Below, piece after piece: positions 10,827 through 23,738 of a DNA stretch of 35,495 nt. Position 1 is the stretch's first letter. Every line of letters begins with the position of its first letter. Below the pieces are notes generated by a model that was given only the letters and a program-made list of their open reading frames with translations, had not been told where the DNA came from and made no database searches. A program made the position numbers and the translations under genes. The DNA comes from a virus (Duplodnaviria; Caudoviricetes): positions 1-35,495 of IMG/VR virus record IMGVR_UViG_3300035670_000736. One strand, given 5' to 3'.

Positions 10827-10966
10827 TCAAAATACCAGAGGATTTGGCGTATAAAACAGGCGAAATACTTTGGTACCTGTTTATGGCTAGCGTTGCCGTT
10901 TCAGTTTCCGCAATCGTTATTGCGCTAGGCTGGAGGACTGTCGTAGAGGTGCTTCAATGGAAATAA
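10823..10966 (+). CDS. Small membrane protein (47 aa; absent from the ORF track)
   Basis: ATGA overlap; ILWYLFMASVAVSVSAIVIALGW transmembrane segment. Confidence 0.5.
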   Translation: MIKIPEDLAYKTGEILWYLFMASVAVSVSAIVIALGWRTVVEVLQWK

Positions 10967-11268
10967 AAAGCCCAGAAGAGTTGGCAGAGGAATACGCAGA
11001 TTTATGCGTGACAGATGCCTGTTATCCCGCAAGCAAAGCTGGCTTCCTCGCTGGCTACCAAGCTGCATCCCCGCAATGGATCAGCGTGAAGGATCGGTTG
11101 CCAGGTGAGTGTGCTGGTTTGTTGATTGTTTATCATGCTTCTTTGAAAGAGATAGGTACCAGCTATTATGATGAGGATATGTGGTGCTCTAATCCGTGGC
11201 CAATAACCTCTGACGGTATTACCCACTGGATGCCGCTACCAAATCCACCAACGGAGGACAGCAAATGA
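10957..11268 (+). CDS. DUF551-domain protein
   Basis: WISVKDRLP...ITHWMPLPNPP. Confidence 0.85.
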   Translation: MEIKSPEELAEEYADLCVTDACYPASKAGFLAGYQAASPQWISVKDRLPGECAGLLIVYHASLKEIGTSYYDEDMWCSNPWPITSDGITHWMPLPNPPTEDSK

Positions 11269-11597
11269 ACGACCAATCAATACAAAACAGGTTATATTCC
11301 TACATTGTTTTAAACACTCGTGGTGATGAGCAACCCGAAGAAATTTGGATTAACAGCGATGATTTTAAAGAGTTGTATGCAGAACTAGAGGAAATACAAC
11401 GCTATGATTCGTTTGCAATACAAGCTCCATACGACAAATTGTTGGCTGGTTTCAAAGCGGTTTTATTTAGTGGTGCTGCAATCATTGTAAATCCAGAAGC
11501 ACCTTCATTGCCGAAAACTTGCGAAGAAATGAAAGATTGGATGAATGTTCCTTTTGAGACAAACGGCAAATCTCTGTCAAATTCACCGGAGGAATGA
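11265..11597 (+). CDS. Stand-alone paralogue of a major-capsid-protein segment
   Basis: TRGDEQP...K.L...L..IQR...P..K..AGF aligns with MCP residues ~182-250; GGAGG SD. Confidence 0.7.
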   Translation: MNDQSIQNRLYSYIVLNTRGDEQPEEIWINSDDFKELYAELEEIQRYDSFAIQAPYDKLLAGFKAVLFSGAAIIVNPEAPSLPKTCEEMKDWMNVPFETNGKSLSNSPEE

Positions 11598-11857
11598 TGG
11601 TTTTTATAGATGATATTGATAGTGAAAAATTGCTTTTCAAAGCATGTGCTTATGCAGAAGCAAATGGCTACAACTTGGATCAAACTGAAAAGCACTGGAA
11701 AGAGAAAAACTCTTTAACAGCAGGATTTATGGCTGGTTATCGTGCAGCTATAGAAGATGAAAATGAAGCGTATCAAGAGGCAGTAAAAAAGGTACAAGAA
11801 GCAACTAAGCGTGAACGTGCTAGGATTCTTGCAATAGTTAAATCGGAAGAAAAATGA
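11594..11857 (+). CDS. Hypothetical protein
   Basis: GGAGG SD; AGFMAGYRAA motif shared with the DUF551 ORF. Confidence 0.55.
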   Translation: MMVFIDDIDSEKLLFKACAYAEANGYNLDQTEKHWKEKNSLTAGFMAGYRAAIEDENEAYQEAVKKVQEATKRERARILAIVKSEEK

Positions 11858-12341: not shown

Positions 12342-15300
12342 TTGTCTGACTACCTGCAAGACAAGCGGATGGATGAACAAGTTGTTTGGGCTCCACAAGC
12401 AGGTCCGCAAGAAGCTCTCGTTCACTGTCCCATTACCCTTATAGGCTATGGTGGCGCTCGTGGTGGCGGTAAGGGGTTAGCTTTGTCCGAAGCAGTCTTT
12501 ACCACTAATGGATGGTCAACCATTGCAGAACTTAAAGTGGGAGACGTCCTTTTTGATGCAAATGGCGAACCAACTACAGTCGTATACAAAAGCCAACCAA
12601 CGTTACGACAATGCTTTGAAATTACTTTTGATAATGGACAAAAAGTTATAGCCGATGACGTGCATCGCTGGATTACACATTCAAAAGCAGAGCGTGTTTC
12701 TAATTATAAATGCTCTGACGAATATCGAGCAAAACGGCGAGCGCAAAGACAATCAAGAGCAAAAACAAATCCACAAAAGATTATTAGCCAACAAAATATT
12801 ACAAAGTTAAATCAATCAAGGCAGTACATATATAAGCCACAAAATAACGGCTCAATGCGCTCTACATTACACTTGTACGAAACGCTAAAAGTACAAAATG
12901 GGCGAGAGGTAAATCATGCTATTAAGTTAGCAGGTAGTATAAAACAGCAAGAAAAAAATCTGCTCATCCCACCTTACGTTTTAGGAGTTTGGCTAGGAGA
13001 TGGATCTAGCTCTAGCGGATATATAACGATTGGAAATCAAGATTCACGAGATATAACAAGGGAATTGCATCGCTGCGGGTATCGTTCGCAAAGATATGCA
13101 AACGATATTTGCTACAAGATTTGGAGAAACAAGCCTTTTATATCAGAGTTAAAAGAACTTGGATTGGTTCGCAATAAGCATATTCCAAACATATATTTAC
13201 AAGGGTCAGAGCAGCAGCGATTGGAATTATTGCAAGGTCTTTTTGATACCGATGGAAACTGTAATAAAGACGGTCAAATTGAGTTTTGTAATACAAGAAA
13301 AGAAATAGCTTATGGCGTTTATGAGCTGCTTTGCAGTTTAGGTGTGAAAGCCTTTATTAGCAAAAAACAACCTAAATGCACCAATGCTAAAAATGGCACA
13401 AAAGTTTGCAAAACTGCTTGGATAGTAAAAGCAACTACTACCTTGCCAGTGTTTAAACTATTTAGAAAAAACCAAAGAATACCAACTAAGGTCAGAGAAA
13501 CTCAGAAGTGGCATTACATAACTAAAATTCAACCAGTGCCGCCCGTCTGGACTCAATGCCTAGAAGTAGATTCTGAAACTCATACGTTTTTAGTATCTAA
13601 ATCATTTATTCCAACACACAACACCGACGGGGTATTAGGTAAGTTTGCCATCGTTCAAGAACAGCTTGGCGCTGATTTTAACGCCATCTTTTTTCGTAAA
13701 GAGCTACCCCAGGCAGATGACCTTATCGAGCGAGCAAAACAGATTTACCTACCGCTAAAGGCTCACTGGCAAGACCAGAAGAAGCAATTCACCTTTCTTA
13801 ACGGTGGCCGACTACGTTTTAGACCGCTTGCAGATGATGGAGACGCTGAGAAGTACCAAGGGCAAAATTTATGCGTAGCTGTTGGCACTCGAATCAGAAT
13901 GGCAGACGGCTCATTTAAGCCGATAGAAGCGATTCAGATAGGCGATATGGTGGCAACCTTATTAGGACCACGCAAAGTAAAAAATCTTACTACGCCTTAT
14001 TTAGCTCCTTGCGTCGAGAGCCAGGTTTTGGACCAGGACGGCAACGTGGTGGGGGCTCAGAGAAATCCCATTTGGCACCCTGTTTTGACGGCACACGGAG
14101 TTTCTTCCATCTCTGCAAACTCCTTGCAACACACGTCTCAGAAACGCCATATCGACCAGCAATCTCTGCAATGGGCACTATCTGCTTGTAACGTAGATCG
14201 TATATTTCCCGCATATAAGGGTCTAAAGCACCAGGCTTGGTTCTCTTGGAAAGAAGATAAGAAAACTTATTGTACAGAGTCATCGGATGACACCCTAAAT
14301 ACGCAGCAGCTTGATTCGTTGTCCGTCCCTGTAACGCTTCACGCACCGACTGTTCGGTTAGTTCGTAAGCTCGCACGTTCTTCCCACGCCGCTTCCACTG
14401 TATGTCATGCTCCTGGCAAATCTTGCGAACAGTTGTCGGACTCATCCCTAATGAAGCAAAAGATACGGCAGGGTTTTGAGCAGCTTGACGCACTTTTTCA
14501 ACCAGTTCTGAGTTCGCTCTCCATGCTTTGTGATGCTCCTTCAAATGTTCCGACCAAGACGCAAACAACTGCAAATTTTCAATGCGATTGTCAGTTTTGT
14601 CGTGGTTTATGTGATGAACATTCTCTCCAGGCTGTAGAAAACGGCCAAGGTAAACTTCCATTACAAGACGGTGTTGCTGAATTGTCCCGTACATTGAACG
14701 AGGATGAGTCGGACACCATTCAAAAACATAACCCTGAGCGTTCAGAGTGGTGGGTGCATCCTTATAGCGGCAAGGCGTTTTATCTCGCTGAGGATGTTGT
14801 TTTTGGAAAGATGGTAATGACATACGTTGGCACTCAATTAGTTACGGACCTGACTGTTGAAGAAGCTAATCATTATATATCAGATTGCGGCCTCATCAAC
14901 AAGAACTCTCATTGCGCCATAGAGGAAGCCGGTAACTACTCTGACCCCTCACCAATCTGGAAAATGTTTGGTGCGCTGCGAGGTAAAGGTGGTGGGCAAG
15001 TCATTTTAACCTTCAACCCAGGTGGTATAGGTCACGGCTGGTTAAAAGAGTTATTTATCAAGCCAGCACCTAAAGGCATGAAGTTGCTCACAAAGATGCT
15101 GCCTAACGGTGCAAGCTTTGACTACATTTACATCCCGTCACGAGTACACGACAACCAGATCCTACTTGCAAAAGACCCTGAGTATATAAACCGACTGCAC
15201 ATGGTTGGCTCGCCAGAGCTGGTCAGAGCATGGCTAGAAGGAGACTTTGAGATACATGAAGGTTCGTATTTTCCTGAATTTAGCAGCAAGCATATCGTTT

Positions 15301-15950
15301 CACCTTTTAACGTACCTAGTCATTGGCCTCGGTATCTTGGTTACGATTGGGGCTTCCGTTCCCCTTTTGCCGCTGTTTGGGGCGCTGTATCTTCTGGAAG
15401 GGATGACAAAGGAAACGAAGTTCCCTACTCAAAGGGAAGTATTGTCATCTACCGAGAGTTATGGGGAAAAGGAGTTGATAACGTCGAGCAAGCAAATCGT
15501 ATTGCTTCGCTTTCCGTCGGAGAGAATCCACTAGGCTACGCAGACCCGTCTATCTTTAAACACGATGGTGGACCAAGTATCAATGACCAACTGACCCAGG
15601 TTTTTGCCAAGTACAACCATCCACCGTTTCGAGCCGCTGACAATGACCGACTGTCAGGCTGGTCCCAGATACGACAACGGTTGGTTAATAAGCCACCTTT
15701 GCTATATATTTTTGCTACCTGCCCGTATTTAATACAAACGCTTCCCGCCTTGGCCATAGACAAACGGAAGCCAGAGGATGCAGATAGTGCTGGTGATGAC
15801 CATTGCTGTGACGCTTTACGTTATATGTGTAAAGCAAGACTTATAGATAGCAAGTGGGAACAACCAGCAGAAGTGTTCAACAAAGGCATTGTAAAACTGC
15901 AAGCGTATATTGCCCAGATGAGGGCGCAAGCAAATAGGCCAAAGATATGA
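12342..15950 (+). CDS. terL: Terminase large subunit precursor with two inteins (spliced product ~474 aa)
   Basis: Splicing restores Walker A GGARGGGK|T and YQGQNL|SHCAIEE Walker B; LTFNPGG; nuclease motifs GYDWG, YADPS, DDHCCDALRY. Confidence 0.95.
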   Translation: MSDYLQDKRMDEQVVWAPQAGPQEALVHCPITLIGYGGARGGGKGLALSEAVFTTNGWSTIAELKVGDVLFDANGEPTTVVYKSQPTLRQCFEITFDNGQKVIADDVHRWITHSKAERVSNYKCSDEYRAKRRAQRQSRAKTNPQKIISQQNITKLNQSRQYIYKPQNNGSMRSTLHLYETLKVQNGREVNHAIKLAGSIKQQEKNLLIPPYVLGVWLGDGSSSSGYITIGNQDSRDITRELHRCGYRSQRYANDICYKIWRNKPFISELKELGLVRNKHIPNIYLQGSEQQRLELLQGLFDTDGNCNKDGQIEFCNTRKEIAYGVYELLCSLGVKAFISKKQPKCTNAKNGTKVCKTAWIVKATTTLPVFKLFRKNQRIPTKVRETQKWHYITKIQPVPPVWTQCLEVDSETHTFLVSKSFIPTHNTDGVLGKFAIVQEQLGADFNAIFFRKELPQADDLIERAKQIYLPLKAHWQDQKKQFTFLNGGRLRFRPLADDGDAEKYQGQNLCVAVGTRIRMADGSFKPIEAIQIGDMVATLLGPRKVKNLTTPYLAPCVESQVLDQDGNVVGAQRNPIWHPVLTAHGVSSISANSLQHTSQKRHIDQQSLQWALSACNVDRIFPAYKGLKHQAWFSWKEDKKTYCTESSDDTLNTQQLDSLSVPVTLHAPTVRLVRKLARSSHAASTVCHAPGKSCEQLSDSSLMKQKIRQGFEQLDALFQPVLSSLSMLCDAPSNVPTKTQTTANFQCDCQFCRGLCDEHSLQAVENGQGKLPLQDGVAELSRTLNEDESDTIQKHNPERSEWWVHPYSGKAFYLAEDVVFGKMVMTYVGTQLVTDLTVEEANHYISDCGLINKNSHCAIEEAGNYSDPSPIWKMFGALRGKGGGQVILTFNPGGIGHGWLKELFIKPAPKGMKLLTKMLPNGASFDYIYIPSRVHDNQILLAKDPEYINRLHMVGSPELVRAWLEGDFEIHEGSYFPEFSSKHIVSPFNVPSHWPRYLGYDWGFRSPFAAVWGAVSSGRDDKGNEVPYSKGSIVIYRELWGKGVDNVEQANRIASLSVGENPLGYADPSIFKHDGGPSINDQLTQVFAKYNHPPFRAADNDRLSGWSQIRQRLVNKPPLLYIFATCPYLIQTLPALAIDKRKPEDADSAGDDHCCDALRYMCKARLIDSKWEQPAEVFNKGIVKLQAYIAQMRAQANRPKI
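12474..13622 (+). mobile_element. Intein 1 (383 aa), class-3-type, with LAGLIDADG homing endonuclease
   Basis: Starts GLALSEAV, block B DDVHRW, block F TQCLEVDS, ends PTHN|T; LGVWLGDG and LQGLFDTDG motifs. Confidence 0.92.
13872..14906 (+). mobile_element. Intein 2 (345 aa), Cys1, no sense-strand endonuclease
   Basis: CVAVGTRIRMADGSFKPIEAIQIGD; block B WHPVLT; VTDLTVEEANHYISDCGLINKN|S. Confidence 0.92.
13990..14823 (-). CDS. HNH endonuclease with three HTH repeats, encoded antisense inside intein 2
   Basis: [36 protein letters not shown]; HTH-like [47 protein letters not shown]. Confidence 0.88.
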   Translation of the reverse strand: [277 protein letters not shown]

Positions 15951-22781: not shown

Positions 22782-23738
22782 ATGGCAAATCTTGAGGAAG
22801 CAGTAGTAGCGACCTTGTTTGACCAGTCCGATGCAATCGCTGATGAGGTGCTTCACCATAATCCGCTTCTTGCTTCACTGGATGAGCAGGGCTTGATCCG
22901 TAAATTCTCCGGTGGATATGAACTCCGTAAGCCAATCATGTACAATGATGCGGCTGTAGGTGGTTTCTACTCCGGTTTCTCATCTTTCAACCTTGATGCT
23001 ATCGATGATGCAACTGCATTCCGATTCGCTATCAAGCAGGTATATGAGCCTGTAGCAATTTCAGGCCGTGACCGACGTGCTAACCGTGATGAGGCTATGC
23101 TTCTTGATCTCGCTGAGATGAAGATGAAAGCTGCAATCGCTCGACTTAAGAATACCGTTTCTACCTCGCTTCGTGGCGATGGAACAGGAAGCGGAGGACT
23201 TGAGTTCGACGGTATCAAGAAGGCAGTTTCGACTTCACCTTCTTCTGGAACCTATGGAACCATTGACCGTACTGCTAACTCTTGGGCTCGAAATCTTGCG
23301 GTAAACGTAACGCTTTCAGCTTCAAACGTTCAGGAACAGATCACAGATGCTATCAGCCAAATCACACGAGGCGACGAGCAACCTGATCTTGGTCTTATGG
23401 ATCGTACAGCTTGGAAGTACCTCCACTCTTCGCTCACTGCAATTCAGCGTATTCAGCTTCCTGTAAAGAAGGCTGTAGCTGGTTTCCGTGTGCTTCAGTA
23501 CGACGGATGCGATTTCGTATTCGACGGTGGATACGGTTCTTCAGTGCTTGAGACAAACTCATGCCGACTTCTCAATACTAAGTATTGGTCGTTCGACGTG
23601 GTTCGTGGTGCAGACTTCAAACCGCTTGCTCCAGAGATGGCTCGACCGGTTGATCAGGATGCTTTCTTCACAGTTATCATTGTTGAAGGAAACCTCTGCT
23701 GCGCTGCACCTGCACTTCAGGCTGTTATTTACGCTTAA
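22782..23738 (+). CDS. Major capsid protein
   Basis: 318 aa after the scaffold; YGTIDR, EQPDL, GNLCC..P.LQAV motifs; strong codon bias. Confidence 0.88.
   Translation: MANLEEAVVATLFDQSDAIADEVLHHNPLLASLDEQGLIRKFSGGYELRKPIMYNDAAVGGFYSGFSSFNLDAIDDATAFRFAIKQVYEPVAISGRDRRANRDEAMLLDLAEMKMKAAIARLKNTVSTSLRGDGTGSGGLEFDGIKKAVSTSPSSGTYGTIDRTANSWARNLAVNVTLSASNVQEQITDAISQITRGDEQPDLGLMDRTAWKYLHSSLTAIQRIQLPVKKAVAGFRVLQYDGCDFVFDGGYGSSVLETNSCRLLNTKYWSFDVVRGADFKPLAPEMARPVDQDAFFTVIIVEGNLCCAAPALQAVIYA

Follow-up and report, generated by a model that had tools for sequence, protein, structure and literature searches.

A mobile phage gene derived from the major capsid protein and predicted to encode a stand-alone HK97 A-domain

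A small accessory gene of the phage analysed here almost certainly encodes a real protein exapted from the major capsid protein (MCP), and the role of this protein is probably non-structural. Its 110-aa product (ORF 11265-11597, hereafter the mini) is predicted by modelling to be a stand-alone HK97 A-domain with a new C-terminal tail. The stretch of DNA analysed (the window, 35,495 bp in full) is a complete phage record with direct terminal repeats, in which Pfam and PHROG searches revealed a phage gene set with terminase, portal, adaptor, tail and SLT proteins. The gene and its immediate surroundings comprise the following features:

10957..11268, + strand: DUF551-family accessory gene upstream of the mini (PF04448, E 8.8e-11)
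11253..11257, + strand: Shine-Dalgarno-like GGAGG, 7 nt ahead of the mini ATG
11265..11597, + strand: mini-capsid ORF, 110 aa, ATG start, predicted stand-alone HK97 A-domain
11265..11492, + strand: mini residues 1-76, MCP-derived as judged by pairwise and profile-profile matches and by the model
11493..11555, + strand: mini residues 77-97, family-specific conserved tail without significant MCP match
11556..11594, + strand: mini residues 98-110, variable low-confidence tail (pLDDT <50 for residues 100-107)
11594..11857, + strand: accessory gene without assigned function, downstream of the mini (ORF list, conserved context)

The GGAGG motif that the first-pass annotation had assigned to this gene as its own Shine-Dalgarno sequence is present at 11253-11257, and purine-rich sites resembling it precede most mini homologues. 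The location described there, among accessory genes and about 11 kb from the MCP, was equally accurate: the gap to the MCP gene is 11.2 kb and the neighbours are the DUF551 gene and small accessory genes. The mini ATG overlaps the stop codon of the upstream DUF551 gene (ATGA), the mini stop overlaps the ATG of the next gene at 11594, and the 3' end of the mini (residues 98-110) closes with a gene-end/RBS motif resembling that of the DUF551 gene. GC3 was 0.34 for the mini and 0.23 for its downstream neighbour, compared to 0.41-0.45 in the core genes checked, the segment 11265-11857 of the window being more AT-rich. Promoter-like sites occurred at chance level (6 observed versus 6.7 expected), and the 20 runs listed included no RNA holder. 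As for the terminase genes of the window, the segment 9823-10323 corresponds to a putative small terminase by its position and its conservation in relatives, with no Pfam or PHROG match. The large subunit ORF (12342-15950, + strand, 1202 aa) seems to contain two intein-like inserts, with LAGLIDADG_3 (E 3.9e-8) and, at residues 511-549, Hint domains. An intact ORF of 277 aa with HNH (E 2.7e-10) and HTH domains lies antisense within the second insert (13990-14823, - strand) without closing the terminase frame, and it may represent a dual-coded homing element.

The capsid gene and the segment of it that is homologous to the mini are located as follows:

22782..23738, + strand: major capsid protein (MCP), 318 aa, Mx8-like, phrog_9953
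23313..23525, + strand: MCP residues 178-248, mini-homologous segment (BLASTP, Smith-Waterman)

The identity of the MCP was established by its match to the phrog_9953 major head protein (E 2e-63) and by 33% identity to the major head proteins of Myxococcus phages Mx8 and Mx9 (E about 3e-43). A deep MCP profile also matched the solved major capsid protein 6j3q (E 0.0046), and Pfam PF17236 (SU10_MCP) was matched by 7 out of 46 distant MCP relatives. BLASTP aligned mini residues 1-76 to MCP residues 178-248 with 23 identities in 76 positions (30%), an E of 4e-10 and the single 5-aa gap noticed in the first-pass annotation. The Smith-Waterman score of this pair was 93, and none of 5,000 shuffles scored as high (mean 28.4, maximum 63). 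When the window was searched by six-frame tblastn, the mini and the MCP were each other's sole significant non-self match (E 2.5e-8 and 6.3e-7), the next-best matches having E values of 0.49 and 0.55. A profile-profile comparison between the 46-sequence MCP profile and that of the mini gave a probability of 91% (E 9e-7, 68 columns), so the alignment was significant at the pairwise as well as at the profile level. Different codons were used at 18 of the 23 identical residues of the whole alignment, and in the heptapeptide TRGDEQP (11316-11336 versus 23364-23384) 5 of the 7 codons differ, as had been claimed. DNA likeness is confined to one 27-nt stretch, and a recent duplication of the MCP segment was ruled out by the absence of DNA similarity beyond it; the proposal of protein-level conservation rather than recent copying is thus supported by the codon differences and by a dN/dS of about 0.1. 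One correction concerns the heptapeptide itself, which varies within the mini family (TSGDQQP and TCGDDYP are among the versions seen in relatives) and of which only T18, G20, D21 and P24 are kept in at least 90% of 23 mini sequences. The mini has no counterpart of MCP residues 1-177 and about 250-318, and carries its own tail. None of the Pfam families matched the window mini, whose single PHROG match (tail fiber, E 0.04) was dismissed as weak, as was PF12108, found in 6 of 23 mini members (best E 0.001). PDB sequence searches returned only irrelevant matches (a beta-lactamase for the MCP and a designed TIM barrel for the mini).

The AlphaFold model of the mini, obtained with 23 sequences, reached a pLDDT of 85.3 and a pTM of 0.77. 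It runs in the order helix, strand, helix, loop, two strands and short helix, with residues 1-76 modelled as helix 6-16, strand 26-29, helix 31-45, a loop, and strands 65-68 and 71-75. After comparison with 48,161 chains by an exhaustive structural aligner, ranks 1 to 26 were all occupied by capsid or encapsulin entries. The best match was encapsulin 6x8m (Z 6.1, rmsd 3.4, 78 aligned residues); HK97 1ohg (Z 4.8, rmsd 3.9, 75 aligned), T4 gp24 1yue (Z 4.0, rmsd 5.1, 78 aligned) and the archaeal A-domain entry 2pk8, matched along residues 5-91 or nearly its full length (Z 3.9, rmsd 4.1, 74 of 94 residues aligned), were also recovered. All these Z values are 6.1 or less, below the caution level of 8 set for the aligner, and Foldseek found no match of the mini in PDB and BFVD at E 0.001 or better. 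Since the Z values are modest, the A-domain assignment rests on the consistency of the fold matches together with the sequence link to a real MCP. In the AlphaFold and profile comparison suggested by the first-pass annotation, the model is confident, its leading matches agree with the original reading of the mini as roughly an A-domain, including as they do the A-domain encapsulin 2PK8, and the profile alignment is significant, but the structural scores stayed low and Foldseek gave no significant match. For the MCP, AlphaFold with an alignment of only 54 sequences gave a pLDDT of 38.5, so that the A-domain borders on the MCP are placed indirectly. Prediction of a complex between mini and MCP gave no answer (score 0.00 in both of two runs) and bears neither way. 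In the BFVD search, the top rows for the mini contained many unnamed phage proteins of 70-110 aa, all with E >0.04, from Serratia phage Rovert, Pseudomonas phage PaBG and Bacillus phages CP-51 and Pascal among others; some of them may be stand-alone A-domains.

The mini family consists of two divergent subtypes and a lone third form, and in one case the gene appears to have entered a phage whose capsid is distant. A protein search with the mini yielded 8 clusters at 75-92% identity, and contig scans found copies of type A, the type to which the window mini belongs, in both IMG/VR and JGI. Four matches came out of a profile search against 1.84 billion representatives, namely one known type-A protein, P0129 (40% identical to the mini), P0130 (32-34%) and a 655-aa repeat protein (P0131, E 8e-4) that was discarded as spurious. 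P0130 is the founding member of type B, which is present in 10 viral loci and is about 31% identical to the window mini; MCP profiles did not match type B significantly (E 0.16-2). For P0129, no DNA context was recovered. Among 50,697 records of cultured phages there was no match to the mini, and an ESM Atlas feature search recovered only unnamed viral clusters (0.89-0.90). A search for longer proteins identified no fused form among 7992 candidates, a weak result since the same search also missed the MCPs.

The survey of related small MCP-fragment genes and the dN/dS estimates that had been recommended at the outset revealed no sign of neutral decay. The ORFs were intact, of 100-112 aa, at all 13 type-A loci (window included), 10 of them distinct. 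Across the 45 pairs of these 10 distinct genes the median dN/dS was 0.12, ranging from 0.055 to 0.49, with the high values confined to near-identical pairs with very few changes; the window mini compared to the other nine gave 0.055-0.10 at a dS of 0.7-0.9, and Fisher p was at most 2e-11 in the 5 pairs tested. Type B, with 9 full genes and 25 of 36 pairs computable, had a median dN/dS of 0.095. MCP controls gave similar values, 0.06-0.10 in 4 pairs, so that the overall dN/dS within mini types is as low as that of the MCP, and no arms-race acceleration was seen in these gene-wide values. The conserved tail (residues 77-97) had a pN/pS of 0.19 versus 0.17 in the core, and its motif A79, L82, P83, W92 and N94, missing from the MCP, is invariant in 23 mini sequences of all types. 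The mini family is thus made of live, intact and selected genes and not of pseudogenes. That the mini is a decaying MCP fragment or a chance similarity might be argued from its patchy presence and from the near-identical pairs that reach 0.49 on very few changes; with intact ORFs at every type-A locus, window values of 0.05-0.10, a second selected subfamily and not one shuffle in 5,000 equalling the real alignment, this explanation has practically no probability left, and pseudogene and chance match alike are refuted by the shuffles and the dN/dS of both subfamilies.

To place the mini relative to the MCPs, a tree was built on 70 columns from 14 minis together with 14 close and 7 distant MCPs; all 14 minis lay on one side of a branch with support of 98/96, in a tree for which the tool issued a long-branch warning and whose root is arbitrary. 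Type-A and P0129 minis scored 29-42 bits against MCPs of the window's clade and 28.5 or less against the 7 distant (Mx8-type) MCPs, with one exception at 34.7. They have in common the clade-specific MCP residues D198, K212 and R236, and retain MCP-clade residues over both helices and the loop (K35, Q45-R46, P55, G62-F63). Four residues that never vary among the 46 MCPs of alignment A7 (R196, D202, G249 and G250) are variable or lost in the minis. We infer from these sequence comparisons that the family probably descends from a single old duplication in this MCP lineage. The view of the mini as a paralogue of the phage's own MCP thus stands as regards the lineage, but the duplication appears to be old and was followed by movement of the gene between phages.

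Out of 84 distinct viral records, 50 were surveyed for carriage, the shortest having been dropped. The type-A mini was present in only one (G001) of 12 MCP-selected close relatives at least 90% complete, and type B in none of the 11 remaining near-complete relatives, the positive controls being found in 3 out of 3 cases. In one relative (L019) the site is empty, with the DUF551 gene joined directly to the next gene and no mini between them. The ends of the cassette are near-repeats of each other:

11240..11258, + strand: left cassette boundary, DUF551 gene end and RBS, near-repeat of the right boundary
11578..11593, + strand: right cassette boundary, near-repeat, where the L019 junction falls

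Contig joints skipping 11245-11584 were seen in two runs and set aside because their sides were of 25 bases only. DUF551-family genes occur as several divergent copies per genome (10957-11268 in the window; also in L001, L003, L012, L081 and L092). The gene-end and RBS sequence common to them also ends the mini, and it may permit single-gene swaps via short-homology recombination.

Twenty distinct mini loci were compared. In 14 of them, including 10 of 10 type-B and 4 of 10 type-A loci, the mini is co-oriented with RecT/ssb/RusA genes or lies opposite the terminase genes; 5 loci, among them the window, place it just upstream of terL, and one is unclear. The mini lies on the strand opposite the MCP in G005, G051, G053 and G057. 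Neighbouring genes differ from locus to locus and include no conserved enzyme partner. In G005 a mini 78% identical to that of the window accompanies an MCP with no more than 31% identity, and the GC content is 39% in the mini gene but about 55% around it; because of both features, this mini was probably gained by horizontal transfer. The opposite situation was found in G057, G051 and G053, whose MCPs are 91, 88 and 82% identical to that of the window and whose minis are only 30-32% identical. Each of 6 carriers checked genome-wide had exactly one mini, of either type. The patchy presence, the empty site and the decoupling from the resident MCP show the mini gene to be dispensable and point to a one-gene cassette that is swapped between phages. 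The mini profile found none in 28 records with distant Mx8-like MCPs, a search of low sensitivity since it also missed the L122 candidate. The latter is a 96-aa ORF (L122:1992-2282, + strand) upstream of the terminase genes of a phage with a distant Mx8-like MCP, and is a candidate stand-alone A-domain with a C-terminal cysteine-pair motif. Its profile probability was low (27% against MCPs and 60% against minis), with no pairwise match to its own MCP, and its Atlas model (pLDDT 0.59) resembled capsid clusters at TM 0.6-0.7 and a 95-member viral cluster of 88-aa proteins at TM 0.69; no relatives of it were found in viral contigs. Prokaryote genomes searched with the MCP gave an unclassified MAG contig as the sole match.

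The closest structural precedent is provided by the Family 4 A-domain encapsulins (Pfam PF08967/DUF1884), exemplified by Pyrococcus furiosus PF0899 (PDB 2PK8), as described in PMC8346489. Both they and, as modelled, the mini consist only of the A-domain, at about 100 aa. Family 4 members are reported to be cellular, mostly from Thermococcales archaea and some Bacteroidetes, with very low sequence similarity to capsids (PMC8346489), whereas the mini is still 30% identical to its parent MCP. Their genes typically lie downstream of an enzyme gene (hydrogenase, OsmC, GAPDH, DeoC); the mini is phage-encoded and has no enzyme partner. As none of the 23 mini family members matched PF08967 at E up to 1, and given its viral origin and the lack of an enzyme operon, the mini, as modelled, resembles Family 4 structurally without being a member. 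The direct sequence parent of its residues 1-76 is the Mx8-like MCP (phrog_9953). SaPIbov5 Ccm (PDB 7rwz) and T4 gp24 (1yue) are also homologous to MCPs without serving as the major shell subunit, but they are much larger (the 1yue chain has 390 residues) than the 110-aa single-domain mini, which is usually absent from relatives. T4 gp24 and SaPI Ccm enter capsids. The mini is not a paralogue of their type because the rest of the HK97 fold is missing from it, only MCP residues 178-248 being matched. In the literature covered, consisting mostly of titles and openings of abstracts with subscription journals thinly represented, we found no description of a phage-encoded stand-alone capsid A-domain. 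The word "capsid" does not occur in the searched passages of the main text of the EVADES catalogue of 268 anti-defence proteins (10.1101/2025.06.06.658234), and a 2026 update on phage countermeasures, in the portion available, mentions the MCP only as a trigger (PMC13728456).

With one third of the HK97 fold, according to the architecture given in PMC8346489, and no N-arm, E-loop or P-domain sequence, the mini would be unable to build a shell. Being dispensable, mobile, indifferent to the resident MCP and found mostly with recombination genes, it more readily suggests a role directed at the host than one in the assembly of its own capsid. An old copy of a capsid segment, predicted to fold as an HK97 A-domain and travelling as a one-gene cassette, may work away from the virion by mimicking the capsid; it would engage a host protein whose usual ligands are capsid monomers, without triggering it. 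The partner would most plausibly be an immune sensor, although its being of the Avs7/8/10 type, and its blocking rather than activation, are speculative. Expression of the mini before or alongside the MCP would be expected from gene position only. A decoy for A-domain-binding immune sensors, one of the functions imagined in the first-pass annotation, is therefore put forward tentatively, by analogy, as the leading mechanism, because the mini retains the A-domain and Avs7, Avs8 and Avs10 are reported to bind the A-domain interface of the capsid protein (PMC13581612). Those three, together with CapRel SJ46 and the staphylococcal Thoeris ThsB1, would be hypothetical targets of the mini, not its relatives. 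As a small, patchy and mobile accessory gene in variable regions, the mini fits such a role, though these traits are not specific to anti-defence decoys. Several observations speak against the decoy. Isolated core fragments of other targets suffice to activate Avs18 and Avs19 (PMC13581612), which means that a free A-domain could set off the sensor instead of blocking it. Avs7 is reported to contact the P-domain and E-loop too (PMC13581612), CapRel to bind mainly the P-domain (PMC9712102), and Thoeris escape mutations to map to the P-loop and E-loop (PMC12578639), all of which are missing from the mini. Moreover, mini and MCP are only 30% identical, type B is beyond detectable MCP similarity, dN/dS is not accelerated, and late expression would suit the 5 loci, the window among them, in which the mini immediately precedes terL on the structural strand.

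Some of the same evidence suits an exapted fold with an unrelated new job, in which the mini would be a scaffold binding another host or phage factor and capsid mimicry would be irrelevant. The invariant new tail, the variation or loss of residues that none of the 46 MCPs changes, and the equally strong selection on a type B without detectable MCP similarity are what such a job would leave behind, and Family 4 A-domain proteins are reported in cells, in operons with enzymes (PMC8346489). We consider this explanation somewhat unlikely, as a conserved enzyme partner is absent, the neighbours vary among loci, and type A and P0129 keep the MCP-clade residues of the helices and loop. The mini might otherwise bind MCP monomers or capsomers via its A-domain helices, delaying assembly of its own phage or poisoning that of a co-infecting relative in the manner of SaPI Ccm. 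The two A-domain helices are described as forming the inter-subunit interface of facets (PMC8346489), a quarter of the loci (5 of 20, including the window) are just upstream of terL, and one mini of either type per carrier (6 checked) is what exclusion-type alleles might show. Such interference is nevertheless improbable: mini type varies regardless of the resident MCP, a mini is missing from 11 of the 12 near-complete close relatives, several MCP-invariant residues are lost, and a poison of near-identical MCPs would hurt the carrier as well. The first-pass suggestion of a modulator of the phage's own capsid assembly is disfavoured in particular, the gene being usually absent, mostly with recombination genes opposite the structural strand, and of a type not tied to the MCP. 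That the mini is a minor part of the virion comparable to T4 gp24, for example a vertex cap or a decoration-like protein, is very improbable; the descent from the MCP and the weak fold match to gp24 1yue (Z 4.0) would agree with it, but the mini comprises about one third of the fold, is never beside head genes in 20 loci, lies mostly on the opposite strand and is missing from most relatives.

The decoy reading draws its interest from the fact that capsid proteins are hard to mutate and that, according to a recent report, one and the same A-domain surface is bound by three independent families of bacterial receptors. A counter-measure would be expected to look like a dispensable mobile gene reduced to the A-domain, and the mini is a directly testable candidate. 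It is conceivable, if rather doubtful, that tailed phages repeatedly excise their own capsid A-domain as a mobile, diversifying decoy against Avs7/8/10-type receptors, in which case anti-defence proteins that mimic the trigger would form a new general class, exemplified in small podoviruses by the mini family. With its predicted fold, the mini family adds a viral form to the stand-alone A-domains already described, and the genomic data support a non-structural role well. Should the decoy hypothesis prove wrong, the family would still illustrate how proteins like the stand-alone A-domains of archaea can arise from a virus, with the parent capsid still recognisable (30%) in the same genome.
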